From: Myxococcales bacterium
GTDB taxonomy: Bacteria; Myxococcota_A; Bradymonadia; REDH01
Assembly: GCA_020633625.1 (NCBI GenBank)
Contig: JACKDJ010000023.1
Coordinates: 531 to 64,530, forward strand
Length of the DNA stretch: 64,000 bases
Direction: 5' to 3'
The position numbers and the translations under genes are program-made. Under the pieces are notes generated by a model. It was not told the origin of the DNA, did not search any database, and was given only the letters and a program-made list of their open reading frames with translations. Of the stretch, positions 512-58,614 are shown piece by piece; positions within the stretch are counted from its first letter, which is position 1; each line of letters opens with the position of its first letter.

Positions 512-1762
512 ATGCTCATGCTGGCCGACACTCGCCCGAGCTGCTCCAACGTGAACTCGTCCGACCCCCAGACTGCACGCAGAGTTGTCGTCCTCTCCGA
601 CATCGAGATGGGCGCCGGCGGTCCCACCGACGACTTCCCCAGGACCGACTGGCTACTCGAGCTCCTCCGCGACGAGGCCGCCGCAACCCCCGCGGGCATT
701 GAGCTCGTCTTCGTCTTTAACGGAGACACGTTCGACTTCCTCAAGACCCACCGCGTCGACGGCAGCATCGCTCGCCTCATCGATGAGCGCTGCGCGCTCG
801 AGAAGCTCGACCGCATCGCCGCGGCCCACGACGCGTTCTTCAGCGGGCTCGGCGACACCCTCCGCACGCGGTCCCGAACGCGCGCGGTCTTCACGACCGG
901 AAACCACGACTACGAGCTCGAGTTCGGCGCCGTCAGAGCCTCGATCGCCGCACGCATCGCCGCCCCGGGCCGTGTCGAGTTCGTCGGGGCCGGCGTGGCC
1001 CTCGGCGACGCGTGGATCGAGCACGGCAGCCAAGAAGACGCGATGTTCCGCTTCGACTTCGCGTCACCGCTGCTCGAGCACGACGGCGTCAACGTCCTGC
1101 GGCTCCCGTGGGGCGCCATCGGAATCATCGACGTCATGCTCCCGATGCACGAACTCTTCGCGCACCACGACCGTATGCGCCCCCGAGGCCTCGTCTTCGA
1201 GGTCTTCCCCGAGCTGCGCGAGCTCCTCGTCGGTCGCGCCTGGCGCTACTGGAGCCGCGACTACCTGCGCCGCTGGTGGGGCGGCAGCGATCCCCTCGCC
1301 CGCGTCTCCTGGCGAATGGCGCGCGAGATCGTCTGGCGCCTCGGCACGGCGAACGCGTCACTCTCGGTCCACCAGCGCTACCGCCAGCGACTCGTCGACG
1401 GACCGCACCGAGTGATCGTCATCGGCCACGAGCACGAGGCCTCGTGGTGGGCCCACGCCGACCGCAAGCTCCTCACCACGGGCTGCCTCCGCTGCGAGTT
1501 CGCGCTGAGCCCAGACGGCAAGCAGACCACCCTGCTGCCAAGCGTATACGCCGAGCTCCTCCAAGACTCCTCCGGCCGAACCTTCCGTTCGGAGCTCAGG
1601 GAGCGACTAGGCCCAGAGCCGCCAACGGGCTGGGCCCCCGCCTCCATCTTCGACGTCCGACCCACCGTAGAAGCGATGCTTGCCGAGCAGCGCGACCGCC
1701 GCGAAGTCGCCCAAGCCCAGGTCGCCCACGAAAGCACCGACGACGAGTCCGACGGCGCCTGA
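512..1762 (+). CDS. Metallophosphoesterase (calcineurin-like phosphoesterase family)
   Basis: ORF 512..1762. Motifs present are NGDTFDF (GDxxD), TTGNHDYE (GNHD/E) and VIGHEHE (GHxH). Motif I reads SDIEMG, with Glu where His is expected. The start could also be the second ATG at 518. Confidence 0.75.
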   Translation: MLMLADTRPSCSNVNSSDPQTARRVVVLSDIEMGAGGPTDDFPRTDWLLELLRDEAAATPAGIELVFVFNGDTFDFLKTHRVDGSIARLIDERCALEKLDRIAAAHDAFFSGLGDTLRTRSRTRAVFTTGNHDYELEFGAVRASIAARIAAPGRVEFVGAGVALGDAWIEHGSQEDAMFRFDFASPLLEHDGVNVLRLPWGAIGIIDVMLPMHELFAHHDRMRPRGLVFEVFPELRELLVGRAWRYWSRDYLRRWWGGSDPLARVSWRMAREIVWRLGTANASLSVHQRYRQRLVDGPHRVIVIGHEHEASWWAHADRKLLTTGCLRCEFALSPDGKQTTLLPSVYAELLQDSSGRTFRSELRERLGPEPPTGWAPASIFDVRPTVEAMLAEQRDRREVAQAQVAHESTDDESDGA

Positions 1763-1770
1763 GCACCCGC

Positions 1771-2291
1771 GCCGCTCCTTCCCGAAGGTAGTTTCGGGGC
1801 CCGGGGCCGCTCCTTCCCGAAGGTAGTTTCCGGCGGTGGGGCGGGTCCGGCCGCTCCTTCCCGAAGGTAGTTTCGCGGCGGTGGGGCGGGGCCCTCCCGA
1901 AGGTAGTTTCGCGGCGGTGGTAGTTTCGCGGCGGTGGGGCGGGGCCCTCCCGAAGGTAGTTTCGCGGCGGTGGGGCGAGTCCCTCCCGAAGGTAGTTTCG
2001 CGGCGGTGGGGTGGGGCCCTCCCGAAGGTACACCCGCGCCTCCCGGGCACGCTCTGGGGCGGGGCCCTCCCGAAGGTAGTTTCGCGGCGGTGGGGCGGGT
2101 CCCTACTCCTCCGCGGGCGGGGGCGGGGCCCTCCCGAAGGTAGTTTCGTGGCCCGCGAGACGAGCGCGCTGCTCCGCCGCGGCCGACCCCGGCGGTGGGG
2201 CGGGTCCCTACTCCGCTGGCGGGGCCGGGGGCTTCCCGAAGGTAGTTTCGCGGCCCGCGAGACGAGCGCGCTACTCCGCCGCGGCCGACCC
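1771..2291 (+). repeat. Degenerate tandem array (about 36-bp unit) of a REP-like element with core CCCGAAGGTAGTTTC
   Basis: Core copies are all in the same orientation and start at 1781, 1816, 1860, 1896, 1949, 1985, 2021 (truncated), 2069, 2133 and 2234, plus a partial copy at 1921. The typical unit is CTCCCGAAGGTAGTTTCGCGGCGGTGGGGCGGGGCC. The array fills the convergent gap between the stop codons at 1762 and 2271. Confidence 0.9.
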
Positions 2292-2951
2292 CTCCGCCGC
2301 GGCCGACCCCTCAGCCGCCGCCGACCCCTCAGCCGCGCCGCTGCCGTCGGACCCCTCCGCCGGACTCGGCACCGCCACCGGCTCGGGCGCCGGCGGCGCT
2401 ACCTCCGGCTCGGGCGCGGGCGCGGGGAGCGACTCCACGAGCGTCTTCAGCGATGCGAGGCCCTCTTCGTAGTCCGCGCCGAGGAACTTCTCCATCGCCA
2501 GGTTGAAGTACCTGCGCATCGGATTCATCCCGGCGTTGACCTCGAACGACCAGGTGACGTGGCTGCCCGTCTCGGTCGGCTCGATGGTCATCTCTGCGAA
2601 CGCGTCGCCCTGGCCCTCGAACTCGATGTGGGTGCGGACGCGGCGGTCGGCCTCGGACTCGACGATCGACATCCGCCCAGAGCCAGACACCTTCGGGTCG
2701 CCCGACCATGTGTACGACGCGCCCACGCCCTCTGTCTGATCGGCGTAGATCTGCGTCGCCGTCGGGTCACGCCGAAGCCACGGCTGCCACTCCCCGAACT
2801 TCTTCAGATCGTTCAGGTACGGGAAGATCACGGCCGCGGGCGCGGCGATCTCGGTCGACCGCTCGACGTGAGCCTCGGCCGGGATCAAGTACGCTGCGCC
2901 GATCAGACCGAGCAGCAGCGCCAGAACGACTCGAAGGACCTTCTTCATCAC
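2271..2951 (-). CDS. SRPBCC-family (polyketide cyclase/dehydrase-like) exported protein with C-terminal (GSAAAE)n tail
   Basis: ORF 2271..2951. The N-terminal signal peptide is MMKKVLRVVLALLLGLIGAAYLIPAEA. The sequence HVERSTEIAAPAAVIFPYLNDLKKFGEWQPW is typical of SRPBCC ligand-binding domains. The tail is encoded by 18-nt tandem repeats at about 2274-2330. Confidence 0.75.
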   Translation of the reverse strand: MMKKVLRVVLALLLGLIGAAYLIPAEAHVERSTEIAAPAAVIFPYLNDLKKFGEWQPWLRRDPTATQIYADQTEGVGASYTWSGDPKVSGSGRMSIVESEADRRVRTHIEFEGQGDAFAEMTIEPTETGSHVTWSFEVNAGMNPMRRYFNLAMEKFLGADYEEGLASLKTLVESLPAPAPEPEVAPPAPEPVAVPSPAEGSDGSGAAEGSAAAEGSAAAEGSAAAE

Positions 2952-3113: not shown

Positions 3114-5146
<2,033 letters not shown>

Positions 5147-41030: not shown

Positions 41031-43637
41031 TCAGTGAGCCGCCGCCCAGCTCGGCCCGACGCCGACCTCGACCTCGAGCGGCACGGCCAGCTCCACACAG
41101 CGCTCCATGCGCTCCCGAACCACGGCGACGACCTCTGTCACCTCTGCCGGCGGTGCCTCGAAGAGGAGCTCATCGTGGATCTGGACGAGCATCTTCGCCG
41201 CCAGACCGCGGGCATCGAGCTCGCGTTGGATCTGCAGCATGGCGAGCTTGCAGATGTCGGCGGCGGAGCCCTGGATCGGTGTGTTTGCCGCGATGCGCTC
41301 GCCGTAGCCCCGATCCTGCCAGTTGTTGGAGCGGAGCTCCGGGATCATCCGACGGCGCCCCAGAAGCGTCTCACAGTACCCGTTCGCGTCGGCCTCGGCG
41401 ATCGTCCGGTCCAGCCACGCTCGCACGCCCGAGTAGAGCTCGAAGTAGCGGTCGATCATCTCCTGTGCGCGCTTGCGCGGCACGCCGAGCTGCTGTCCGA
41501 GGGCGGTCGCGCCTTGTCCGTAGATGGTGGCGAAGTTCACCGTCTTGCCGACCGTGCGCTGCTCGCGTGTGACCTCGGCTTCGACGACATCGAAGATGCT
41601 GGCAGCAGTCTGGCGATGCAGGTCGAGCCGCTCGTTGAACGCCCGCAGCAAGGCCGCGTCCTTGGAGCAGTGCGCGAGCACGCGGAGCTCGATCTGGCTC
41701 CAGTCGGCAGAGATCAGCTCCCAGCCGCCGCGCGGCACGAAAGCCTCGCGGATGCGCCGGCCATCGTCGGTCCGTATGGGCGTCCGCTGCAGGTCCGGGT
41801 CGGTCGTGATGAGGCGCCCAGAAGCGCCGGCCGTCTGTTGGAACGTTGCGTGCACTCGACCGTCGGTCGGGTCGATCGCACGCTGCAAGACCTCGGTGTA
41901 TGTGTTGATCAGCTTGTCGAGCGCCCGCCACTCCAGCACACGTTCCGCGATCTCGTGCTTGGGCGCGAGGCGCTCGAGGACGTCGGCCGCCGTCGAGTAG
42001 CCGGTCTTGTTTCGTTTGACGACGTCGATCTTCAGCTCGTCGAACAGCACCTCGCCGAGCTGTTTCGACGAGCCGAGGTTGAACGGATGGCCGGCGAGCT
42101 CGTGCACGCGGGCCTCGACTTCGGCACGCCGCGCGCCGAAGTCGCGCTGCAGCGACGCGAGCACGTCTGGCAGAACGCGGACGCCGTCGGCCGACATCCT
42201 CGCGAGGACTCCCGACAAGGGGAGCTCCACGTCGTCGTGGATCTTGCGGGCATCGAGCTCGTCCAAGCGCGGCACGAGCGCCGTCCACAGGTCCTCGGTG
42301 GCGACGGCGCTGCTCACCGCCCACGCGGCCACGGCCGCAGGGTCCGCCTCTGCGAAGGTCGCCGCGCCACCCCGCGCGTCGCGCGCCGTGGGCAGCGCGC
42401 GCTGCAGGTACTCGCGAGCGACGCGCTCCAGCTCGTGCGGGATGCACTTGGTGGGGTCGACCAGGAACGACGCGAGCGCCGTGTCGCCCGCCACGCCACC
42501 CAGCGCGTGACCGGCGCGGCGCAGGGCGGCGTCGAGGTCGCGGGCGTGGTGCACTATCTTCGGGCGGGGTCCCGCGAGGAGTTCGTGGAGCGCCTCCGCC
42601 GTGGCTGGCGACAGCGGCGCGTAGCCAGCGTCGCCGCCGACACACAGCGCCACGCCGACGAGGGCGGGGGCGCGCGGAGGCTCGGAGTCCAGCACGGGCG
42701 CGACCGCGATCGCACCTCTGCGTGGGCAGAGAGCCACGCGCGAACGGCCTCGTCGGTGCTCAGCGTGTTGGCGTCGGGCGCCTCGGCGAGCGGCTGCGCT
42801 GGTCGGCGCCAAGCAGCGAGTTGAACTCGAGACGTCGATAGAGGGCGTTGATCGCGGCCTCGTCGACGGGTGGGAGGTCAGCCCCTCGATGCCGAACGGG
42901 AGCGGCGCGGCGCAGTCGATGGTCGCCAGCTCTCCGAGAGCAGCGCCTGGTCGCGGTAGGTCTCGAGGTTCTCGCGCTGCTTGCCCTTGAGCGCGTCGAG
43001 GTTCTCGTAGACGCCGTCGAGGCTTCCGTACTTCTCCAGCAGGCCCGCCGACGACTTCTGCCCGACGCCGGGGACCCCGGGATGCCGTCAGAGCTGTCGC
43101 CCATGAGCGCGAGGTGGTCGACGAACTGGCTCGCCAGCACGCCCCACTTCTTGCGCACGAGCTCTTCGTCGTAGGTGACGTCGCGCATCGGGTCGAGCAT
43201 GCGGACCTGCGGCGCGATGAGCTGCGCGAAGTCCTTGTCGCCCGACACGATCATGACCTCGTGCCCGGCGGCGACGGCCTGTTTGGTCAGCGTTCCGATG
43301 ACGTCGTCGGCCTCTGTACCCGGGACGCGCAGCGTCGGGTAGCGGTGAGCGGCGACGACCTCGTCGATCAGCGGGAGCTGAACACGCAGGTCGTCGGGCA
43401 TCGACGGGCGCTGCGCCTTGTACTCGGGGTAGCGCTCGTCTCGGAACGTGGGGCCTGGGCGTCGAAGATGACCGCGCCGAAGCGGGCGAGCTTCGCCGCG
43501 AGCAGCTTCCGGAACATGAGCGCGAACCCGTAGGTCGCGTTCGTCGGGGTGCCGTCGGCGGTCGAGAAGCTGGAGGGGATCGCGAAGTAGGCGCGGTAGA
43601 TCAGCGCGCTCCCATCGATGAGTACGACCCGCTCCAT
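41031..43637 (-). pseudogene. polA: DNA polymerase I, reading frame interrupted about six times in the 5'-nuclease/linker third
   Basis: Three ORFs (43637..43368, 43401..42760, 42812..41031) carry collinear Pol I sequence. These are MERVVLIDGSALIYRAYFA, MPDDLRVQLPLIDE...SGDKDFAQL, LEFNSLLG, and an intact polymerase domain ending VPLEVEVGVGPSWAAAH. Hand translation shows -1 frame losses near 43451, 43077, 42937, 42878, 42804 and 42716. Confidence 0.8.
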
Positions 43638-43650
43638 CGGCTTCTCCGCG

Positions 43651-44666
43651 CTAGGGCGTGCCTTCCATCAGCGACATCCCGTTGCCGAGATCGCGGCGGG
43701 TGCGCCGCGCCATCGCGATGAAGTCGGTCGCGCGGCCCGACGCGACCCAGGCCGCGTAGTCGGTGCCGCGCTGCAGGGCGTAGTGGTAGTTGCCCTCGAC
43801 CACGCGGCTCCAGTTCCCGTACTGCCGGGTGTGGAGCACCCACGAGTGGTCGTCGAACGGCATCGCCGTGATGTTGGCGACCGTCTGCGGGTCGTACGTG
43901 TAGTACTGCTCGGCGTTCGAGAGGTAGAGCAGGCGCACGGGCATCCCGTTGTCGCGAGCGACACGCGCGATGCCGGTCATCGCAGACGACGCGGTCAGGT
44001 CGCCGCGGATCGCGAACACGCGGTTGTTGATCCACAGGTTGCGGATGAAGTCGTACTCCGTCTGGTCGTTGACGAACGCGACGACGCCGTCGCGTGTGTA
44101 CTCGCGTGCCAGCCGGCGGAGTCGCGCGCCGCAGAGGTGGATCGAGGCGCGGAGCGAGCGAGCGACGGCCTCGGCGCGCGCCGGCGGGAGGTCCGCGTTG
44201 ACGAGCGCGATCACCTCGTCGAGCCGGTCGTCGTCCCAGTAGGCGAGGAAGTCGGCCGGGGTGGTCGCATGCTTGAAGAGAACGCCGTACGCCTCGTGGA
44301 CGTTCGCGATCTGCTGATCGAAGTCGAGCATGACGACGAGGGAGGACCGCGCCCAGCCGGCCATGACGTAGTTCTGGTCGGTGCCGACGCCGATGTAGAC
44401 GCCGCCGATGTTTGCGATCGTGTCGCGCACGATCCAGTGCCCCTCTTCGTTCGAGACCCAGTAGTGCGAGTCGCGTGTCAGCGCCTCGGGCTCGGGGTCC
44501 GGCGCCACAGCCTCGAGCTGCGACCGGATGTTCGCCGGAAGCGGCACGGTCGGTCGTTGGCCGCCGAAGTCTGCGCGGAGGCCGGGAGGGACGTCGCGAG
44601 CGCGGAGAGCGTCACGAGGAGCGCCGCGAAGGAGCGGCGGGAGAGAAGGGCGCGGTTTCTGGTCAT
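43651..44666 (-). CDS. Hypothetical exported protein; signal peptide and mature domain lie in different frames (apparent 1-nt frameshift)
   Basis: The mature domain is the C-terminal about 300 aa of ORF 43651..45549 (DSHYWVSNEEGHWIVRD...GVGTDQNYVMAGW...). A strong signal peptide (MTRNRALLSRRSFAALLVTLSALATSLPASAQT) starts at the ATG at 44666 in the frame of ORF 44478..45323. The frames meet near 44540-44560. Confidence 0.5.
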
Positions 44667-44789
44667 CGGTAGGGGTACGGCATGGACGGACGCTCGGCAC
44701 CCTATGGCGCCGTTCGATCCGCCGCAAGAACCGCCAGCGGGCGGCACGGCGAGGTGACCCCTGGCGGTCGCGCGGGCGTCGGTTCGACG

Positions 44790-45310
44790 GGTGAGGCGGT
44801 CGCCCCCAGGTCGTCGAGCCCACCCGTCGAGCCCGCCCGAAGGTAGCCAGTACGCCCCCGGTCGAGCCCGCCCCGCCCCCAGGTCGAGCCCGCCCCAGGT
44901 CGATGCGACGCCCGGTCGAGCCCGCCCGAAGGTAGTTTCCGCCCCCAGGTCGAGCCCGCCCGAAGGTAGTTTCCGCCCCCAGGTCGAGCCCGCCCGAAGG
45001 TAGTTTCCCAGGTCGAGCCCGCCCAGCCCGCCCGAGCCCAGGTCGAGCCCGCCCGAAGGTAGTTTCCCAGGTCGAGCCCGCCCCCAGGTCGAGCCCGCCC
45101 GAAGGTAGTTTCCGCCCCCAGGTCGAGCCCGCCCGAAGGTAGTTTCCGCCCCCGGTTGAGCCGGCCGTCGAGCCCGCCCGAAGGTAGTTTCCCAGGTCGA
45201 GCCCGAGCCCCCCAGGTCGAGCCCGCCCGAAGGTAGATTCCGCCCCCGGTCGAGCCCGCCGTCGAGCCCGCCCCCCGCCAGGTCGAGCCCGCCCGAAGGT
45301 AGTTTCGAGG
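44790..45310 (+). repeat. Degenerate tandem array (about 34-bp unit) of REP-like element, core CCCGAAGGTAGTTTC
   Basis: Core copies start at 44836 (degenerate), 44925, 44959, 44993, 45052, 45098, 45132, 45177, 45226 (GTAGATTC variant) and 45292. The unit is CCCGAAGGTAGTTTCCGCCCCCAGGTCGAGCCCG, with extra CAGGTCGAGCCCGCC submodules. Confidence 0.9.
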
Positions 45311-45373
45311 GTCGCCAACGCACCGCCCGCGGCCCGACGCCGAAAAGGGGCGGCCCGAGACCGGAGCCGCCCG

Positions 45374-46261
45374 ATGACCCCGCCGCGACAGATCCTCCCG
45401 AACACGAACTTCGAAGTCTGCACGCGCACGTTCGCGCGCACCTTCCGGCTGCTCCCGACGCCGGCGATCAAGAACGCGATCCTGTACATCGTCGGGGTGG
45501 CGGCGGCGCGGTACAACATCACGCTGTATGCGATGGTCGCGATGACCACGCATTACCACCTCGCGGGGAGAGACACCGACGGCCGGCTCCCCGAGTTCAT
45601 CCAGTACGTGAACTCGCTGCTGGCGCGCGCGCTGAACGCCGAGCAGGGCATGGACGACAAGTTCTGGTCGGGCGACGGCTACCACCTGCTGCGTCCGGAG
45701 TCCGCGGACGACCTGATGCGACGCCTCATCTACATTGCGGCCAACCCGGTCGCCGCGGACTTGGTGAATCGGGCGACCGACTACCCCGGCTTGCTCATCC
45801 GCCCGCGCGACATCGGAACGACGATCACGGCGAAGCGTCCGGACTTCTTCTTCCGCGACAGCGGGTCGATGCAGGAGTCTGTAGAACTGCGGTTCGAGAT
45901 CCCACCCGAGTTCGCGCACCTCGGTCGCGACGGCTACGTCGCCCTCCTGGAGGAGAACCTGCGCGTGGAGGAGCAGAAGCTCCGTGCCAAGCGAAAGGCG
46001 GAGGATCGCGCTGTCATGGGCGCCGACCGCTGCCGCCAAGCCGCGCTCGGCCGCCGCACCACGAAGTTCGAAGAGTGGTTTCGGCTGCGTCCGACGATCG
46101 CGGCCCGCGTGAAGCGAGAGCGGATCGCCGCGATCCGCGCGCTTCAGGCGTTTCGAGAGAGCTACTACGCGGCGCTGAAGGACTGGCGCGCGGGGCTGAC
46201 GGCAGTGTTTCCGCTCGGAACCTGGTGGCTACCTCGATTTGCCGGCGCTGCCGTCGGCTGA
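45374..46261 (+). CDS. IS200/IS605-superfamily Y1 (HUH) transposase homologue, REP-associated tyrosine transposase (RAYT)-like
   Basis: 295-aa ORF with GGAG 8 nt upstream of the ATG. It has an HUH motif (AMVAMTTHYHLAG) and, about 60 aa later, RLIYIAANPVAADLV (a catalytic-Tyr YIxxNPV motif). An intervening N..G....W segment is typical of COG1943-type proteins. Confidence 0.7.
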   Translation: MTPPRQILPNTNFEVCTRTFARTFRLLPTPAIKNAILYIVGVAAARYNITLYAMVAMTTHYHLAGRDTDGRLPEFIQYVNSLLARALNAEQGMDDKFWSGDGYHLLRPESADDLMRRLIYIAANPVAADLVNRATDYPGLLIRPRDIGTTITAKRPDFFFRDSGSMQESVELRFEIPPEFAHLGRDGYVALLEENLRVEEQKLRAKRKAEDRAVMGADRCRQAALGRRTTKFEEWFRLRPTIAARVKRERIAAIRALQAFRESYYAALKDWRAGLTAVFPLGTWWLPRFAGAAVG

Positions 46262-46464
46262 CCGCGCCGCGTCGAGTCCGAACCGTCGGGGAACCGTGGC
46301 GCCGCCAGGCGCGGCGAATCGGTGCGTCCCGAACAGTCGTCGTCGGTGCGTGCAGACGTGTGGTTGGATGCGGCGATGGTTCGGCGAGCGTGAGTTGCCG
46401 CAAAGGTCGGCGACATACGCCGAGGCGCACTCGAGAGGGTCGCGCCCGTTGGTTGATCGGGCGC

Positions 46465-46543
46465 ACTACCCTCGGGCGGTTGGGCGTCAGGCCCACTACC
46501 CCGGGCGGGTCGGCGGAGGGGCACTTACCTACCCTCGGGCGGG
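46465..46543 (-). repeat. Three inverted, degenerate copies of the REP-like motif
   Basis: The copies are ACTACCCTCGGGCGG (46465-46479), ACTACCCCGGGCGGG (46495-46509) and CTACCCTCGGGCGGG (46529-46543). They are the reverse complement of CCGCCCGA[A/G]GGTAGT from the upstream array, with A>G at one position. Confidence 0.7.
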
Positions 46544-46588
46544 TCGGCGGGGGTCGGCGGGGTCGGCGGGGGCGGGTCGGCGGGGGGA
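46504..46588 (+). repeat. G-rich short tandem repeat (GGTCGGCGG)n
   Basis: GGTCGGCGG occurs at 46508, 46542, 46552, 46561 and 46576, separated by G runs. Confidence 0.8.
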
Positions 46589-46762
46589 CCGCGCCGATCA
46601 ACCCCCGGTCGCGACGTTCGGCGTCGCCGTGCGCCCCCGATGCATCGCAAGATGGGCGGACGCCGCTCGACCGCGCAGCCTGCGTCGGGAGCGAACAGGC
46701 TGCTTCTGGGCGAGTTGCTGCCCGTCTGTCGCGCGCCTCGAGGCCGCGCCCCCGCTCCAAAC

Positions 46763-46805
46763 GCGCCGACGCGGGGGTGAGCGATGCCCACCCCCGCGTC
46801 GGCGC
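46763..46805 (-). terminator. Perfect 15-bp GC-rich stem-loop just 3' of the VIT-vWA gene (candidate terminator)
   Basis: GCGCCGACGCGGGGG (46763-46777) pairs with CCCCCGCGTCGGCGC (46791-46805) across a 13-nt loop. It begins 18 nt after the stop at 46823 on the minus strand. Only a short TTT follows it on that strand. Confidence 0.45.
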
Positions 46806-46822
46806 GGTCGCGCGACTCCGCC

Positions 46823-49141
46823 TTACGGCCGAATCTCGACGACCCGGTTGTCGAGGATGAACCGGACGCGGTCGCCGAGCGCGAGGACGTCGGCCAGGCC
46901 CGCGTTGCCGCGGAGGAGGGCGAAGTACTCGTCGGACATCGTGCGGATGGTCATGTCGACGGGCCGGCCGACCGCCTCTTGCTGCACCCACGTGCCGCCC
47001 TGCAGCGTGAACGACCGCCCACCGGCGGTTCGGACGCCCGCGCGCTGGTCCTCGGAGAGGGTCGTCGTGCGAAGCTCCTGGCTCCGCTCGATCTCGGCCT
47101 CGACAGCGTCTCGGCCAGACGCCGGACGGTCCGTCTGTGCGAAGCCGCCGGTACCCGGGGCGCTGCTTCGGCCGCCGCCGATCGAGCCGTAGCCGGTCGA
47201 GCCACCGAGCACGAGGCCGTCGGACGTCGTGCCCCGCGTGCGCGTCGTGCTCTGGGTCGTCATAGGCTCCTCGTTGACGGGAGCGGCCGCCGCGGCAGCC
47301 TCACGACGGGGGGCGGGGGCGGCGTCGTCGAGCTGGGGTCGCATGCCGCCCTCGTCGAGATCGCGCCACGTCGGCTGCGCGACCGGCATCGGCGGCGGCG
47401 AGATCCGCTCCGACGGGTCGACGGCGAGGTAGCTCGTGTATGGCGTCACGATACCCCACCGGGTCGCGAGCGCCACGATGTCGTCGACGGTCCGCTGCGA
47501 CGCCCCGCGCTCGTCGATCTCGGCGAGGAGCGAGTCGATCTTGCGGCGGGCCCACAGGTTGCCGACGAAGCTCGTGTCGGCGCCGTCGAAGCGCGCGAAG
47601 TCGGCGCCGTACTCCATCGTGTATGGGCGGCCACCGGCGCGGCCGGTCACGGTGACAGAGCTGCTGTGGTCGGCCGCGACACGACCAAACACGACGACCT
47701 CGCGATCTCGGTACAGGTCCGGCAGCGGGTTCGGGTACATGTCGCGCACACGAACTCCGGAGAAGTCGATCGCGATCTGCGTCAGCAGCGGCGAGCCGAT
47801 CGAGCTGTAGAAGGTGCCGACGACGTCGCTGAGGTCTTCGTTTGGCCGAACGTAGCCCGTCTCTCCGCGGCCGCGGCGCGCGATTCCGTCGAGCAGGCGC
47901 GTGTTGACGTCGTAGCCGACGCCGAACGCGAACACGCGGCGATCCCCGTCGCTGACGCCGGCGCGCGCCAGCTCGATGATGTCGTCGATGTTGGTGTTGC
48001 CTTCGGTCGGGAGCCCGTCGGTCACGAAGATGATCGAGTGGGGGCGGTCCGAGCTCGCGCGGTCGCGGAGGGCCCGCTCCAGGGCGTCGGAGATGTTTGT
48101 GTTGCCCCGCGCCGAGAGACCGTCAATGAACGCCGACGCGTCGCGGAGGGCGTCCCGCGTCGCGAGGCGCGGCGAGTCGAAGAGCGGCCGCACCGTGCTC
48201 GAGAACGAGATGATCTGCAGCTCGTCTCGCTCGCTGAGGTTCGACACGCAGTACCGGAGCATGTCGCGCGCCTGCTCGATCTTGGCCCCCGCCATCGAGC
48301 CCGACGTGTCGACGACGAACGTCACGCGCTTGGGCAAGACCTCCAGGTCCTCGAGCTCGGGCGATGGCGCCAGCGTCATCATGAAGTAGGCATCGCCACC
48401 GTCGTCGGCCTCGAACGTCAGCAGCGAGAAGCCGAGGTCTTCGCCGGACTGCTGAATGAAGAGCTCGAAGTCGCGCGACGTGCTCGCGGAGCTCGACTCG
48501 AGCGAGAAGTGGGCCGTGTGTCCGTCGCGCGATACGTCGGTGTCGATGTCGTGGTACGGCGAGTAGACGTTCGTGATCGAGTGCGCCGACCGGATGTCAC
48601 CAGACATCACGAGCGTCGGGATCTCGGCGGCCGCAGACGCGTGGAACGGGTATCGGTAGTGGAGCACGCCGCCCTCGCTCGGCAGCACGTTCGCGAACTC
48701 GATCTCGACGCGCTGCTCCCCGTGCGCCGGCACCGGGTAGATCGACGCCTGAAACAGCTCGCCGTCGACGTACTCGAGCAGGCCCGGGTCGCGCATGCGG
48801 CGGACGATACCCTCATACGTCGCGCGCGCCTCTTCGCGGCGGAGGACCTGGCCGCGGATGCGCTCGCCGTTCATCCACAGCGCGAAGTCGGTCGTGACCG
48901 AGCCGGCCGGGATCGCGAAGTAGTAGGTCGCCTCGAGGTCCTGGCTCGTTCGGTTCTCGAAGACCTGCGTCACGTGCGTGACGGCGCCGTTGTCGGTGAT
49001 CTCGACGTCGACGTCGTGCAGGCGGAGCCGGAGCGGGTCGAGGTGCTCGTCGCGCGGGATCAGGAGCTGCGCCGAAGCAGGCGCGGCGACCAGCAGCGCG
49101 GTGAGCAGGGCCAGAAGGGTCAGCAAGCGGGCGGGGTTCAT
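46823..49141 (-). CDS. Secreted VIT-domain / von Willebrand factor type A domain protein
   Basis: 772-aa ORF. The signal peptide is MNPARLLTLLALLTALLVAAPASAQ. It has a VIT-like N-terminus (VTHVTQVFENRTSQDLEATYYFAIP) and a vWA MIDAS motif (VTFVVDTSGSMAG). Confidence 0.85.
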   Translation of the reverse strand: MNPARLLTLLALLTALLVAAPASAQLLIPRDEHLDPLRLRLHDVDVEITDNGAVTHVTQVFENRTSQDLEATYYFAIPAGSVTTDFALWMNGERIRGQVLRREEARATYEGIVRRMRDPGLLEYVDGELFQASIYPVPAHGEQRVEIEFANVLPSEGGVLHYRYPFHASAAAEIPTLVMSGDIRSAHSITNVYSPYHDIDTDVSRDGHTAHFSLESSSASTSRDFELFIQQSGEDLGFSLLTFEADDGGDAYFMMTLAPSPELEDLEVLPKRVTFVVDTSGSMAGAKIEQARDMLRYCVSNLSERDELQIISFSSTVRPLFDSPRLATRDALRDASAFIDGLSARGNTNISDALERALRDRASSDRPHSIIFVTDGLPTEGNTNIDDIIELARAGVSDGDRRVFAFGVGYDVNTRLLDGIARRGRGETGYVRPNEDLSDVVGTFYSSIGSPLLTQIAIDFSGVRVRDMYPNPLPDLYRDREVVVFGRVAADHSSSVTVTGRAGGRPYTMEYGADFARFDGADTSFVGNLWARRKIDSLLAEIDERGASQRTVDDIVALATRWGIVTPYTSYLAVDPSERISPPPMPVAQPTWRDLDEGGMRPQLDDAAPAPRREAAAAAAPVNEEPMTTQSTTRTRGTTSDGLVLGGSTGYGSIGGGRSSAPGTGGFAQTDRPASGRDAVEAEIERSQELRTTTLSEDQRAGVRTAGGRSFTLQGGTWVQQEAVGRPVDMTIRTMSDEYFALLRGNAGLADVLALGDRVRFILDNRVVEIRP

Positions 49142-53709: not shown

Positions 53710-53748
53710 CCGCGCGGCCGCCGGGGGCCGGGCGTGCTTGCTGTGGTT

Positions 53749-53826
53749 GCCTGCTGCCCCTCGCCGGCGTGACTGCCTACTGCCCCTCGCCGGCGTGACT
53801 GCCTACTGCCCCTCGCCGGCGCACCG
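53749..53826. repeat. 26-nt tandem triplication spanning the stop codon of the 1603-aa gene
   Basis: The three copies are GCCTGCTGCCCCTCGCCGGCGTGACT (53749-53774), GCCTACTGCCCCTCGCCGGCGTGACT (53775-53800) and GCCTACTGCCCCTCGCCGGCGCACCG (53801-53826). The third copy contains the real stop (CTA at 53803-53805). Confidence 0.85.
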
Positions 53827-56800
53827 CGTCTGCTCGACGATGACGATCTCGACGCGCCGGTTGCGGGCGCGTCCCTCTTCGCTCGAGTTGTCCGCGATGG
53901 GGCGGCTCTCTCCGTAGCCGACGGACTCGACGCGCCCGGCGTCGAGCCCGTGCTCGACGAGGTAGCGCTCCACGCTCGCCGCGCGGCGGCGCGACAGGTC
54001 TTCGTTGTACTCATCGGCGCCCTGGTCGTCTGTGTGGCCCTCGACACGCACGAGCCGCACGTGTTGGGCGGCGTCGAGCGCTGCGGCGACGGCGTCGAGG
54101 AGGGGGAAGGAGCGCTCCTCGATCACGTCGCTGTCGAACTCGAAGTACACGCGGTCGCCGAGCTCCACCGCGTCGCACGTCACGAGGACCAAGCCGCCCT
54201 CGTCGGGGCACCCGTCGGTGTCGTCGATGCCGTTGAAGCGCTCCGGCTCGAGCGGGCACATATCGTACTCGTCGAGGACCGAGTCGAAGTCGTTGTCGGG
54301 CTCGGGGCAGCCGTCCTCGTCTTGCCAGCCGTCGAAGTCCTCGGGCTGGAGCGGGCACGGGTCGTTGACGTCGAGGATGCCGTCGCCGTCGTTGTCGGGG
54401 TCCGGACACCCGTCGGAGTCCTGGAACCCGTCGGCGTCTTCGGGCTGCAGGGGGCACTCGTCGTCTTCGTCGAGGATGCCGTCGCCGTCGTTGTCGGGGT
54501 CTGGGCAGCCGTCTTCGTCTTCGAAGCCGTCTCGGTCTTCGCGGACGTCGGGGCACGAGTCGAGGCTGTCGCGGATGCGATCACCGTCGCGGTCATCGTC
54601 GTCGAGGACGGGTCCAAACGTGACGCCCGCGAGGAGCCGCCAGTCGGGCGCGCCGAAGCCCTCGACGAGCCCCGTGCCGGCGGCGACCTCGAGCAGAGCA
54701 CCCCCGCCGAGGGCGGCCTTCAGTCCGACGAGGAGCTCGATCGGGTTCTCTTCGGACCCGAACCCGTCTGCGAGCACCGACGACGCCCCTGTGATCTCGG
54801 GAGCGAGGGCGATGGACCCCGAGACGGGGACGACCGCGCCGACGCCCCACGTGAAGACGTCGTTGACGCCCACGTCGAGGAAGTCTGCGCGTTGACGAAA
54901 AGCCCAGCCGAAGTTCCCGACGATGTGTGTTCCGCCGGCGAAGCCATAGTCGAGCGCAAGCCGCGGCTCTATGCGGAGGTCGCCGCCTTGGAACGCGTCC
55001 TCGTCTCCGGTCGGCAGCTTGGCGTCGATCAGCGCTGCGAGCGCGAGGCCCTCGTCGCCGTGGCCCAGGAGCTGCAACCGTGGCACGAGACGCACGTCGC
55101 CGACGCCAAACCCGGCGTCATCGAACGGTGCGTCGCCGGACTGAATGAGCGTAAGAGGCACGGCGACGCCGACCTCGAAGCGATCGGCGAGCGAGAACGC
55201 GCCGAGCAGGTTCAGGGTGAGCTGACCGTGGACGACCGAGAGAAACCGGTCTCCGTTGCCGTCTTCGACGACGAACGGGTCGTCTGCGTAGTCGAGCGTC
55301 GCGCCGGCCTCCCATGACCCGCGCGGCGCGAGTCGAGCCGTCGACAGGCCAAACACGGCGGCCCGCTGCGATGGCATCGGCGCAAAGCCGTGCGTGTCGA
55401 AGCCGTCGACGGACTGTGCCCCCGACGGCGCAGGGGCCGCGAGCGCGACGACTGTCGCGCCGAGCGCCGCGGCGCGCGCGGAGCCCGTTCGTCGCCGGCC
55501 GCCGCGCACGACGAGCAGCGCGGTGAGTAGAATCAGCCCGCCCGCCAGCGGTGCGTGTGGCGCCGATCCGGAGGCCGCGCAACCAAACAGAGTGCCGCCC
55601 CGGGCGTGCGCACCGTCTGGCCACACGAAGCCGTCGGGCCGGTTCGGGTCGGTCTCGCCATCGTCGACCTGCCCGTCGTGGTTGGTGTCTTCGTCGCCGT
55701 CGTCGACGCCGTCATCGTCGGTGTCGGGATCGGTCGGGTCGGTGGTGGTCGTCGGGTCTTCGTCCGGGACACACAAGCCGAGGCTCATGTCGGTGTCGTC
55801 TCCGACCTCGTCCTCGCTGACCCCGAGCTCGGTGCCATCGTAGATGCCGTCGCGATCGGTGTCGGGCTGGAGTGGGTCGGTGCCGACCTCGCGCTCGCGG
55901 CCGTCGTCGACGCAGTCGTCGTCAGTGTCGGCGTCGTTGGGGTTCGTCTCGCCGATGTCGTGGTTGCCATCGCCGTCGAGATCTTCACCGGCGTCGCAGA
56001 CGTCGATGACGGTCCCGGCTCCGTCGCACAGTCCGTCGCCGTCTGTGTCGGGGTTGCGCGGGTCGGTCGGGTTGTCGCCGTTGACCTCGACGCCGTCGAT
56101 GATGCCGTCGTCGTCGGTGTCGGGGTCGTTGGGGTCGGTGCCGATGACGTTCTCTTCGCCGGTCGTGAGGCCGTCGTCGTCGGGGTCTTCGTCGAAGACC
56201 AGGTCGTCTGAGGGGTCGAGCGGATCGGTGCCGTTGGTCAGCACCTCGGTGCCGTCTGGGACGGTCCCGCCGTCGGTGTCGGCGTTGTTTGGATCGGTCT
56301 CGTCGGCGTCGCGCGTGCCGTCCGCATCGAGATCCTCGCCGCCGACACACACGCCGTCGACGTCGCTCGGCCCGTCGCAGAGGCCGTCGTCGTCGGAGTC
56401 GGGGTCGAGCGGGTCGGTCGCGTTGTCGCCGTGCACCTCGGTGCCGTCGACGATGCCGTCGTCGTCGGAGTCGGGGTCGAGCGGGTCGGTCCCGGCGGCA
56501 GCTTCGTCTTCGTTGATCAGCCCGTCGTGGTCTGGGTCGCCGCCGCGGTCGTCGCCGCCGTAGAGCGGGTCGGTCGCGTCGTCGAGGACCTCGTCGCCGT
56601 CGCCGACGCCGCCGTTGTCGGTGTCGAAGGCGTTTGGATCGGTCTCGTCGTCGTCGAGCACGCCGTCGGCGTCGCGGTCCTCGCCTCCGACGCAGACGTC
56701 GACGACGTCGTTGGGCCCGTCGCAGAGCCGGTCGTCGTCGGAGTCGGGATCGAGGGGGTCGGTGGGGTTGTCGCCGTGCACTTCGGTGCCGTCGAGGATG

Positions 56801-58614
56801 CCGTCACCGTCGGTGTCGGGGACGTCGACGTCGGTGCCGACGTCGCGCTCCTCGCCATTGTCGAGCCCGTCGCCGTCGTCGTCGGCGTCGAGGTCACGCC
56901 CGCCGCGCGTCGCGCCGAGCTCGGACGTCTGTGCGGCGAGCGTCGCGGTGGCGCTGACGACGACGGGGCCCGAGATGACGCCGTCGTTCGGGAGCACAAA
57001 GCGGAAGCGTCGCTCGGCGCCGCTGGTCGCCGCGTCGAGGTCGGCGAGCGAGCCCTCGACGCCCTCGCCGAGCCAGCGCTCGCCCTCTCCGAACCCGGTG
57101 GGGTCGCTGGCATCCGAGGCGAAGAAGTCGAGCGTGGCGCCGGCCGGAGCGGTGCCCTCGACGATGATGGTGTCACCGTCGCGGTAGAACGCCTCGGTGA
57201 CGACCGGGAAGTTCTGTAGGCCGTTTGGTCCGTCGTCGGAGTCGCCGTCGTCGTTGAGGGTGGGGCCATCGCCGTCGAGGTCGATGGCCAGCGCGCCGTT
57301 GTCGCGGAACGTGTTTGCACGCACCGCGACCGTCGAGGCGCCGCGCACGACAACGCCCGCCTGTGTGTTCGTCGCGATCGCGTTTCCGGCACCGACGCTG
57401 CCGATCGAGAGGCCGGTCGAGTCGACGATCTCGACGCCCGGTCCGACGTTGCCGAGCTCGGCGCCGCCGCTGTCGGTACCGATGGTGTTCGCGAGGAGGG
57501 TCGCGTCGGTCGCACCGGCGATCAGGACCCCACCGGCGCCGTTTCCGCAGATCGCGTTGCCCGCGCCGACGTCACCGACCTCGACGCCCGGCGCGAGCTG
57601 CACTCGGACGCCGACGCCGGCGTTTGGGATCGTCGCTGCGGTGGAGCGGGCGAGGCCGACTCGGTTGTCGACGAGCCGCGCCCGTCGGCCGGCGGCGCGG
57701 ACGATCGACACGCCGTCCTCGCTGTTTCCAGAGATGACGTTCCCATCGAGCAGCGCGTCGGCGGCTCCCTCGACCAGCACGCCGGAGCCGGCGTTGGCGA
57801 GCGCAGCGGCGCCCGATGCGTCGACGCCGATGAGGTTGTCGCGCACCACACAGAGCTCGGCGCCGTCTCCGAGCTGGACGCCGTCTTCGCCGTTGGCCGA
57901 GATCACGTTCCGCTCGACGAGGTTGCCGGGGGCGCCGTCGAGCCTGACCCCGGCGTCACCGTTCCCGAGGGCGGTGCGGCCAAGGGGACCGACGCCGATG
58001 TAGTTGCCGGTGATGTCGTTGTTTGTTGCGCCGTCGCCGGAGATGACGACGCCGAAGTCGTCGTTCGCAGAGATGATGTTGCGCGTCAGCGGCGTGGTGC
58101 CGCCGACTACGTTGTCGGGCACTCCGACGATGGAGACGCCAAACCGACCATTCCCGGCGGCGGCTCCGGCCGGCGTGATGCCGATCCAGCACCCCTCGAC
58201 GCGGTTCCCGCCCCGCGTGCGGACGAGGATGCCGCCGTTCGAGAAGTTGACGATCGAGATGCCGCGAACGGTCGAGGCGCCGCCGATGAGCTCGAGCCCG
58301 GTGGCGCCGACGAGGGACGCGCCGTCGAGCACGACCGTTGGGACGCCGCCGTCGGCGACGGTCCCCGAGGCGTCGATAGTGACGGCGACGCTGACGGGCG
58401 GCAGGGGCGTGATCAGGCGGATCGGACCCGACAGCGGGTCGACGATGATCGTGTGCGGTCCGGCCCCGGCTCCATTCACCTGCTCGATCGCCGAGCGAAG
58501 CGAGCCCGCGCCGGAGTTGCTCGAGCTCGTGACGCGGACCTCGATCGCGCCTGCCGGTGCGGCGAGGACGAGGAGGACGAGGGGGAGAAGCGAGACGATT
58601 CGCGAGACGCGCAT
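53803..58614 (-). CDS. Giant exported protein: parallel beta-helix repeats, thrombospondin type-3 repeats, internal MYXO-CTERM-like anchor, beta-barrel-like region, more TSP3 repeats, C-terminal OmpA domain
   Basis: 1603-aa ORF. The signal peptide is [23 protein letters not shown]. PbH1-like repeats include [13 protein letters not shown] and [14 protein letters not shown]. There are many DxDxDGxxDxxE repeats. The OmpA C-terminus is [27 protein letters not shown]...NRRVEIVI. Confidence 0.85.

Follow-up and report, generated by a model that had tools for sequence, protein, structure and literature searches.

The 64-kb stretch of DNA analysed here (64,000 nucleotides of contig JACKDJ010000023.1, from a metagenome-assembled genome (MAG) of a Myxococcales bacterium; hereafter the window) carries at 45374..46261, on the + strand, a gene predicted to code for a Y1/HUH endonuclease of 295 aa. 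The protein belongs to the class of the RAYTs, the tyrosine transposases associated with repetitive extragenic palindromes (REPs). On both sides of the gene lie copies of a short repeat containing GTAG, inverted relative to each other, and the same repeat forms a second array in the window, away from the gene. We consider the locus to be probably a cassette of the REPtron/TIRtron type, in which the enzyme would cut and join the core of its cognate repeats, build tandem arrays from it and seed new ones elsewhere. An initial annotation, made from the sequence without database searches, had proposed a REPtron of the REP/RAYT type. Its description of the organisation holds, with an enzyme gene lying between inverted repeats; a strict REP/REPIN system is not what is found, the repeat forming neither a hairpin nor inverted doublets. 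The annotation had named three results as fatal to its reading, namely no significant profile match for the protein, a repeat confined to this locus and downstream copies no better than chance, and none of the three analyses refuted it.

The RAYT-class protein

The open reading frame (ORF) 45374..46261 contains the two hallmark motifs of Y1/HUH proteins that had been recognized in the initial annotation, TTHYHLAG (H60-Y-H62) and YIAANPVAADLV (YIAANPV, with the catalytic Y120), and both are conserved in the family alignments. Alignments of 27 and 34 sequences show no variation at H60, Y120 or N124 and little or none at H62; P125 is kept in 90 per cent or more of the sequences. The arrangement Y-x-x-x-N-P is the tyrosine signature of class 2 (TnpA_REP) as defined by Quentin et al. 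2018 (PMC6006769).

The profile check suggested by the annotation gave a divided result. Taken alone, the window protein scores below the cut-offs, with 15 bits against a gathering threshold of 23 for Pfam PF01797 Y1_Tnp (E=0.029) and 41.1 bits against a cut-off of 80 for NCBIfam REP_Tyr_transpos (E=1.5e-10, profile positions 33-144 of 146). The family representatives match REP_Tyr_transpos in 34 of 34 cases (best E=2.8e-21) and Y1_Tnp in 18 of 34 (E<0.01). When the PDB sequences were searched with the family profile, the best match was the Escherichia coli TnpA_REP structure 4ER8 (E=2.2e-6, residues 5-143), followed by ISDra2 TnpA; the catalytic tyrosine motif of 4ER8, YINPV, aligns with Y120, which is located on helix 111-122 of the AlphaFold (AF2) model. 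This model has a pLDDT of 92.5 and a pTM of 0.89, and its best Foldseek match in the PDB is again 4ER8 (E=1.7e-6, TM 0.71, root mean square deviation 2.5 A). The top eight Foldseek matches are TnpA_REP and the transposase of ISDra2 (Deinococcus), and IS608 TnpA appears from rank 11. The structural and family-level evidence thus supports the assignment of the predicted protein to the RAYT class of Y1/HUH proteins.

A word-based search returned 47 homologs. At E<=1e-30 the profile search extended the family to 1,675 clusters of 50% identity, whose representatives are almost all about 300 aa long and match from end to end. The catalytic core corresponds approximately to residues 10-145; the C-terminal extension beyond it, some 150 aa long, is also conserved, with F260, Y264 and FPxGTW among its conserved residues. 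No match to these C-terminal 150 aa was found in Pfam, PHROGs, PADLOC or the PDB; profiles of helix-turn-helix (HTH) type (Bac_DnaA_C, HTH_23 and HTH_28) gave no match in the window protein (E<=1) or in the 34 representatives (E<=0.01). The family has no specific Pfam or NCBIfam model, and its members are annotated as 'hypothetical protein'.

The repeat core and its arrays

The core of the repeat is a non-palindromic sequence of 19 nt with the consensus CCCGCCCGARGGTAG followed by 3-4 nt, TTTC in the left copies and TGC in the right ones; the consensus can also be written CCCGCCCGARGGTAGTTTC; the left core is CCCGCCCGAAGGTAGTTTC and the right core CCGCCCGAGGGTAGTGC. The copies at the left end, like those of the gene-less arrays, end in GGTAGTTTC, and the right-end copies in GGTAGTGC or GGTAATC. 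With at most two mismatches allowed, there are 18 matches to the core in the window, compared with 0.05 expected.

The gap upstream of the Y1 gene is 700 bp long and houses the left array (44800..45306), in which ten core copies CCCGCCCGAAGGTAG(TTTC) are interleaved with a 17-nt sub-repeat, CCCCAGGTCGAGCCCGCC. All ten copies of CCCGAAGGTAG(TTTC) are on the + strand, in agreement with the ten same-orientation copies reported earlier. Eight are exact copies of CCCGAAGGTAGTTTC (starting at 44925, 44959, 44993, 45052, 45098, 45132, 45177 and 45292), the copy at 45226 has one mismatch, and that at 44836 is truncated to CCCGAAGGTAG only. The last upstream core starts 81 nt before the ATG, and the leader between the two (45307..45373, + strand) contains, as read from the sequence, CGCCAACGCA.

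The right array (46465..46543, - strand) consists of three inverted copies of the right-end subtype CCGCCCGRGGGTAGTGC, as the annotation had stated: two are CCGCCCGAGGGTAG (46466-46479 and 46529-46542), and the third, at about 46495-46510, lacks one base. The first inverted copy begins 205 nt past the Y1 stop codon. The only other match to CCGCCCGAGGGTAG on the - strand in the 64 kb is a chance-level one at 42554, with one mismatch, and 0.11 matches to the whole pattern are expected; the downstream copies are therefore not a product of chance. On both flanks the GTAG end points towards the gene, as previously observed. Short tandem repeats of GGGTCGGCG(G) extend outward from the right array (46537..46590, not assigned to a strand) and, in reverse complement, resemble the spacer of the left array (CGACCCGCC versus CGAGCCCGCC).

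The entire downstream repeat cluster is bracketed by a 22-nt inverted repeat (46439-46460 and 46594-46615, 86% complementary), so that the cluster could form the loop of a large stem. This 22-nt inverted repeat was not seen in two of the homologous loci described below, L001 and L002.

The earlier description had left open whether the 15-mer CCCGAAGGTAGTTTC occurs away from the Y1 locus. It does: a second array, overlooked at the time, is located 43 kb away at 1781-2249 (+ strand), between the convergent genes 512..1762 (+) and 2271..2951 (-), and two further gene-less arrays are found in other contigs (see below). The array in the window contains nine exact copies of CCCGAAGGTAGTTTC, and with two partial copies included it extends over 1771..2292. 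Its spacers, GCGGCGGTGGGGCGGGGCCCT, have a period of about 36 and are unrelated to those of the array at 44800-45306; no Y1 gene or remnant was found near it. Outside the three clusters, the 8-mer core occurs in the 64 kb at chance level (2 matches versus 1.4 expected), and no single scattered copies above chance were detected in the window.

Directly adjoining the gene-less array is an 18-bp repeat, CTCAGCCGCGGCCGACCC, present in 3.6 copies at 2274-2337; it falls within ORF 2271..2951 (- strand; Polyketide_cyc2/SRPBCC), at the 3' end, where it encodes a C-terminal repeat of the GSAAAE type.

The low self-complementarity of the units and their arrangement as tandem arrays rather than palindromes, both noted in the initial annotation, were confirmed, the former by folding of the single strands. 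Folded as single-stranded DNA and compared with shuffled sequences, the upstream array has z=+4.8 for its + strand and z=-1.4 for its - strand, and the array at 1781-2249 has +1.5; 11 individual units taken from five loci all have |z|<1.6. Units and arrays thus span z from -1.5 to +4.8, and the downstream cluster gives -2.1. The repeats are non-palindromic and none folds notably better than shuffles. Their conserved part lies 5' of GTAG, and no hairpin has GTAG at its foot. In the window and in two homologous loci (L123 and L138), the innermost right copy is followed on the bottom strand by a hairpin of 6-8 bp, which is weak and not general.

Two other readings of the arrays were rejected. An array of the CRISPR type (clustered regularly interspaced short palindromic repeats) does not fit, as spacers from one and the same array are similar to one another and the repeat has a length of only 15-19 nt. 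The upstream array is not a protein-coding repeat either: the long ORFs in it are mechanical, and the real upstream gene begins at 44667, with a signal peptide.

Homologous loci, paralogs and genomic context

The arrangement was compared in 13 independent homologous loci, the window included, drawn from MAGs at NCBI and from metagenomes of ENA, JGI and Logan. The core is present upstream, on the strand of the gene, in nine of the 13. In six loci the proximal copy starts 75-108 nt ahead of the ATG; in three it lies at -144 to -381, and the other four have none. The inverted copies downstream are positionally conserved as well, the first of them lying 176-222 nt after the stop codon in 9/13 loci. 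At least seven loci carry the core on both flanks and further loci carry it on one flank. This geometry is kept from 97% down to 44% protein identity, and in a member with 35% identity CCGAGGGTAGTT is found twice upstream. The core drifts by lineage and contains GGTAG, GGTAA or GGTGA.

Other elements accompany the gene. A CGCAACA box is located about 60 nt before the ATG throughout the family (in the window it has the form CGCCAACGCA), and a stem at the start codon is conserved; in the window the stem, GGGCGGC/GCCGCCC, is just before the start codon. No other conserved left-end hairpin was seen. After the stop codon comes an element composed of GGGGAAC, a hairpin whose stem sequence varies between loci, and then GGTGCGTCC or (A)TTCGGTGCGTCC, the flanking words being kept in most loci. 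It is present at the matching position in the window (46288..46330, + strand; GC hairpin CGCCGC/GCGGCG, followed by AATCGGTGCGTCC) and in L001, L002, L123, L125, L128, L136, L138 and L140. When the sequences were folded one by one, the trailer hairpin reached z<=-1.8 in 5 of 10 loci and -1.77 in a sixth; RNAalifold, applied to a poor alignment of the element, gave no consensus. The element may act in the RNA, as a 3' element, or in the DNA, as a hairpin of the right end.

The Y1 gene appears not to be single-copy. The window protein is identical to a protein of an NCBI MAG (P0317; H6700_08455, Myxococcales bacterium). According to accession runs and locus tags, the MAG H6697 has at least five distinct full-length paralogs, whose identities to the window copy are 100% (P0317), 95.9% (P0319), 94.2% (P0320), 92.5% (P0315) and 89.8% (P0002). 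The MAG H6700 has, judging from the numbering, four, including one pair 98.3% identical at the protein level (P0321). The paralog loci are in unrelated contexts. The compared paralog DNAs are 85-91% identical, with a rate of synonymous substitution (dS) of 0.17-0.56 and a ratio of non-synonymous to synonymous rates (dN/dS) of 0.09-0.10, which indicates purifying selection. At BLAST level, homology between paralogs begins at the last upstream core and ends some 65 nt past the stop codon, 10-13 nt 3' of the trailer hairpin; a weaker homology, visible in a MAFFT alignment, reaches the inverted cores. The whole cassette has therefore been duplicated. Each exact protein that was looked up occurs in one context only, and this context recurs across several assemblies or samples. 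These sequence comparisons suggest that the paralogs are old, selected and stable copies rather than fresh copies of an insertion sequence (IS). No plasmid copy was found by tblastn against plasmids. RAYTs are typically present as one copy per genome (Group 2) or as a few diverged copies (Group 3), and the paralogs resemble the duplication-and-loss pattern of the Group 3 RAYTs (PMC5581495).

In addition to the array at 1781-2249 of the window, gene-less arrays with the exact core are present in L002 (5352-5506) and in L132 (2114-2450), and L128 contains a doublet. The L002 array is on the opposite strand (-), 1.5 kb from the Y1 gene of that locus; a gene for a PemK-family toxin and a small partner gene (4335-4990) lie between the Y1 cassette and this array. 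The L132 array is part of a 100-kb metagenome contig, and there is no Y1 gene within the 11 kb covered. All of the gene-less arrays are direct, with a single strand orientation, and none is composed of the inverted doublets called REPINs. The spacers are array-specific and only the core is common to the arrays. The 15-mer is exact in arrays of organisms whose Y1 proteins are only about 54% identical, and spacers differ even between paralogs separated by a dS of 0.17; the arrays therefore change more quickly than neutral sites do, with the core held constant. Two metagenome versions of one locus, L138 and L139, differ only in that each flanking array has an indel of one whole block, of 159 bp in one array and 102 bp in the other (L138 2405-3005 versus L139 2545-3005, and L138 3890-4850 versus L139 3890-4750); the rest is 100% identical. 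These indels may reflect a real change in copy number or a collapse of the repeats in assembly. Many of the gene-carrying contigs do not exceed 1-1.5 kb, which would be expected if the genome held further copies of both flanks.

As a negative control only, the GTDB representative genomes were scanned for CCCGARGGTAGTTTC, which gave at least 120 single chance matches. Among the matches listed (at least 120 unrelated loci with one exact 15-mer), none is accompanied by an array or by a Y1 homolog. Many of the unrelated genomes listed (L003-L122) that carry the exact 15-mer once are from Enterobacterales, including Yersinia, Xenorhabdus, Proteus and Providencia; in this order the 15-mer is probably inside a conserved gene, unrelated to the arrays.

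The Y1 gene of the window is preceded by a divergent DUF7790 gene (43651..44667, -), with a signal peptide at its start, and is followed by a convergent VIT/vWA gene (46823..49141, -). Scans for sigma-70 promoters and intrinsic terminators found none, and an Rfam search returned nothing meaningful. Between the two convergent genes, at 46762-46806, there is a near-perfect hairpin of 21 nt (95%), terminator-like although without a T-run. Orthologs of the VIT/vWA neighbour were sought for an empty-site comparison; apart from a 100% partial self-match, the best was 61% identical, and no comparable locus was obtained. The window contains other tandem repeats, at 53748-53821 (26 bp, 2.8 copies, 97% matches), 54229-54562 (99-bp period, three copies) and 55976-56878 (345-bp period, 2.6 copies), the latter two probably within large repetitive coding regions.

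Interpretation and comparison with known systems

We propose that the protein would recognise the linear core, probably with the aid of its 150-aa C-terminal extension, and that single-stranded DNA would be cut and rejoined at or beside GGTAG by means of the HUH-bound metal and Tyr120. Cutting and joining at the core are suggested because the chemistry of IS608, ISDra2 and TnpA_REP is known, the catalytic residues are invariant and the association between gene and repeat is tight and ancient. Repeated cut-and-join reactions between neighbouring cores would gain or lose whole units, which would explain how arrays can turn over rapidly around a letter-perfect core. Gene-less arrays would be seeded when a core is now and then joined into intergenic DNA elsewhere, each array then growing locally with spacers of its own. 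The whole cassette would have been duplicated at least five times in the lineage, each copy being kept by selection.

Several observations weigh against this proposal. The upstream array is missing in 4/13 loci, and one distant member of the family, from Planctomycetota, has no recognisable core. The units fold no better than shuffles, whereas all characterised Y1 transposases (IS608, ISDra2 and E. coli TnpA_REP) recognise DNA, to our knowledge, through a hairpin. Replication slippage can expand and contract tandem arrays without any enzyme; the L138/L139 indels fit slippage, and could also be assembly artefacts. Finally, different arrays have no spacer in common, so that whole units are not seen to have moved from one locus to another.

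One alternative is that the locus is an ordinary autonomous IS, of which only the gene-carrying cassette moves, the arrays being by-products of slippage at its ends and the gene-less arrays solo ends left after loss of the gene. The mobile unit would then be bounded by the cores acting like terminal inverted repeats (TIRs), or would be IS200-like, starting immediately behind the last upstream core and ending some 10 nt beyond the trailer hairpin. The presence of at least five full-length paralogs in unrelated contexts of one MAG, the 98.3% identical pair of H6700 and a paralog homology that spans the last upstream core to the inverted cores are what an IS would leave. The stop of BLAST-level homology 10-13 nt 3' of the trailer hairpin recalls the right-end geometry of IS608, and the gene-less arrays seen all belong to the left-end subtype, GGTAGTTTC or GGTAGTTTG. 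We nevertheless consider this explanation unlikely, as the paralogs are old and under strong purifying selection, each exact protein looked up is tied to one context that recurs across assemblies and samples, and no plasmid copy was found. The tyrosine motif is moreover that of the RAYT class and not the Y-x-x-x-Q of IS200 (PMC6006769), and the ends are inverted, those of IS200/IS605 being on one strand. The array at 1781-2249 has no Y1 remnant beside it and its spacers are unrelated. Insertion of an IS into a pre-existing direct array, which would be expected to leave same-orientation cores after the gene, was rejected because there are none in any locus.

It is also conceivable that the core is simply a binding site, occupied by the Y1-like protein acting as a mere DNA-binding regulator or by a host factor, with neither cutting nor movement and with slippage accounting for the changes in copy number. 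A linear, hairpin-less unit suits such a role, as do the fixed distance between the proximal core and the ATG in a divergent promoter region and the lack of spacer sharing between arrays. The catalytic His-x-His and Tyr, invariant over the aligned family representatives, would be superfluous in a protein that only regulates; the inverted copies about 200 nt past the stop codon and the array between convergent genes at 1781-2249 are located where promoters are not expected; and spread, not independent origin, is implied by a core that is exact in loci and organisms unrelated to one another. A role limited to binding thus appears distinctly improbable. That the repeats are a low-complexity feature of a genome with 70% G+C, or an artefact of assembly, is extremely improbable. 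Tandem repeats are prone to error when short reads are assembled, and the window comes from a MAG; the count of matches far exceeds the chance expectation, and an artefact is effectively refuted by the recurrence of the same anatomy in independent assemblies and metagenomes (NCBI, ENA, JGI and Logan).

If the enzyme of the favoured cassette does act on the core, target recognition in this enzyme family would be more flexible than thought, and the 19-nt oligonucleotide would be a testable substrate for how (semi-)domesticated transposases maintain populations of repeats. What the comparisons establish is a strongly conserved enzyme family tied, by position and over deep divergence, to a GTAG repeat without a hairpin. 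A more far-reaching possibility, which we put forward tentatively and regard as rather doubtful, is that the proteins of about 300 aa constitute a large unnamed Y1/HUH branch that reads a linear, hairpin-less 19-nt site through its C-terminal region and builds and seeds direct arrays. Propagation would then follow a new mode, distinct from the 'peel and paste' of IS200 and from REPIN doublets, and Myxococcota would have their first described REP-like system. The searchable literature contained nothing on the core motif or on RAYT/REPIN systems in Myxococcota. REP/RAYT biology has, as far as we know, been studied almost exclusively in gamma-proteobacteria. On a practical level, the arrays break short-read assemblies of Myxococcota MAGs.

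The known systems that resemble the locus most are the REPtrons, represented by yafM/rayT of E. coli and by the RAYTs of Pseudomonas and Stenotrophomonas (PMC6006769, PMC3479197, PMC3116915). Both have a Y1/HUH protein with the class-2 signature Y-x-x-x-N-P, 4ER8 being the best structural and profile match of the window family, and in both short repeats are inverted on the flanks of the gene. The repeats contain GT[AG]G and are also intergenic away from the gene, and paralogs of one genome have slightly different repeat variants. The apparently multi-copy, diverged paralogs are a further likeness, to the Group 3 RAYTs (PMC5581495). The differences are that REPs have GT[AG]G at the foot of a hairpin, whereas the window repeat is not a palindrome; that the gene-less copies are long direct tandem arrays and not inverted doublets (REPINs) or bacterial interspersed mosaic elements (BIMEs); and that there are no single scattered copies in the 64 kb. 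The protein, of about 295 aa, has the conserved C-terminal extension of 150 aa and scores below the NCBIfam equivalog cut-off, and the system is in Myxococcota.

The TIRtrons and their TIRYT proteins (Di Nocera et al. 2013, PMC3733652; subclass 2.1 in PMC6006769) share with the window locus non-palindromic TIRs located at fairly fixed distances around a RAYT-like gene, TIRs that in some genomes belong to repeated families, dimers or clusters, and longer proteins with C-terminal extensions; subclass 2.1 is reported to be prevalent in epsilon-, beta- and delta-proteobacteria (PMC6006769). The described TIR consensus is GGGGWSAS, whereas the window core is CCCGCCCGARGGTAG. The C-termini of subclass 2.1 match Bac_DnaA_C, HTH_23 and HTH_28, whereas the window C-terminus matches nothing. 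Long arrays of at least ten units with an exact core and array-specific spacers are not described in these two papers. Membership of TIRYT subclass 2.1 thus fails on the HTH C-terminus and on GGGGWSAS (PMC3733652, PMC6006769).

With the IS200/IS605 elements (IS608 and ISDra2), the locus has in common the catalytic fold (Foldseek matches 2XM3 and 2VJV), a hairpin shortly before the drop in paralog homology, a stem sequestering the start region, as in IS200, and several copies per genome. It differs in its tyrosine motif and protein length (Y-x-x-x-N-P and 295 aa versus Y-x-x-x-Q and a TnpA of about 150 aa), in having no tnpB at the window locus, in its inverted ends, and in copies that are 85-97% and not about 99% identical and that are context-stable across assemblies; no left-end hairpin was found. 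Membership of IS200 fails on the tyrosine motif, the orientation of the ends and the identity of the copies. The organisation is therefore that of a REPtron/TIRtron, yet the defining features of REPs, the hairpin and the REPIN doublet, are lacking. We regard as new a large unnamed RAYT-class family of about 300 aa, whose cognate repeat bears GTAG, has no hairpin and is arranged in direct tandem arrays.

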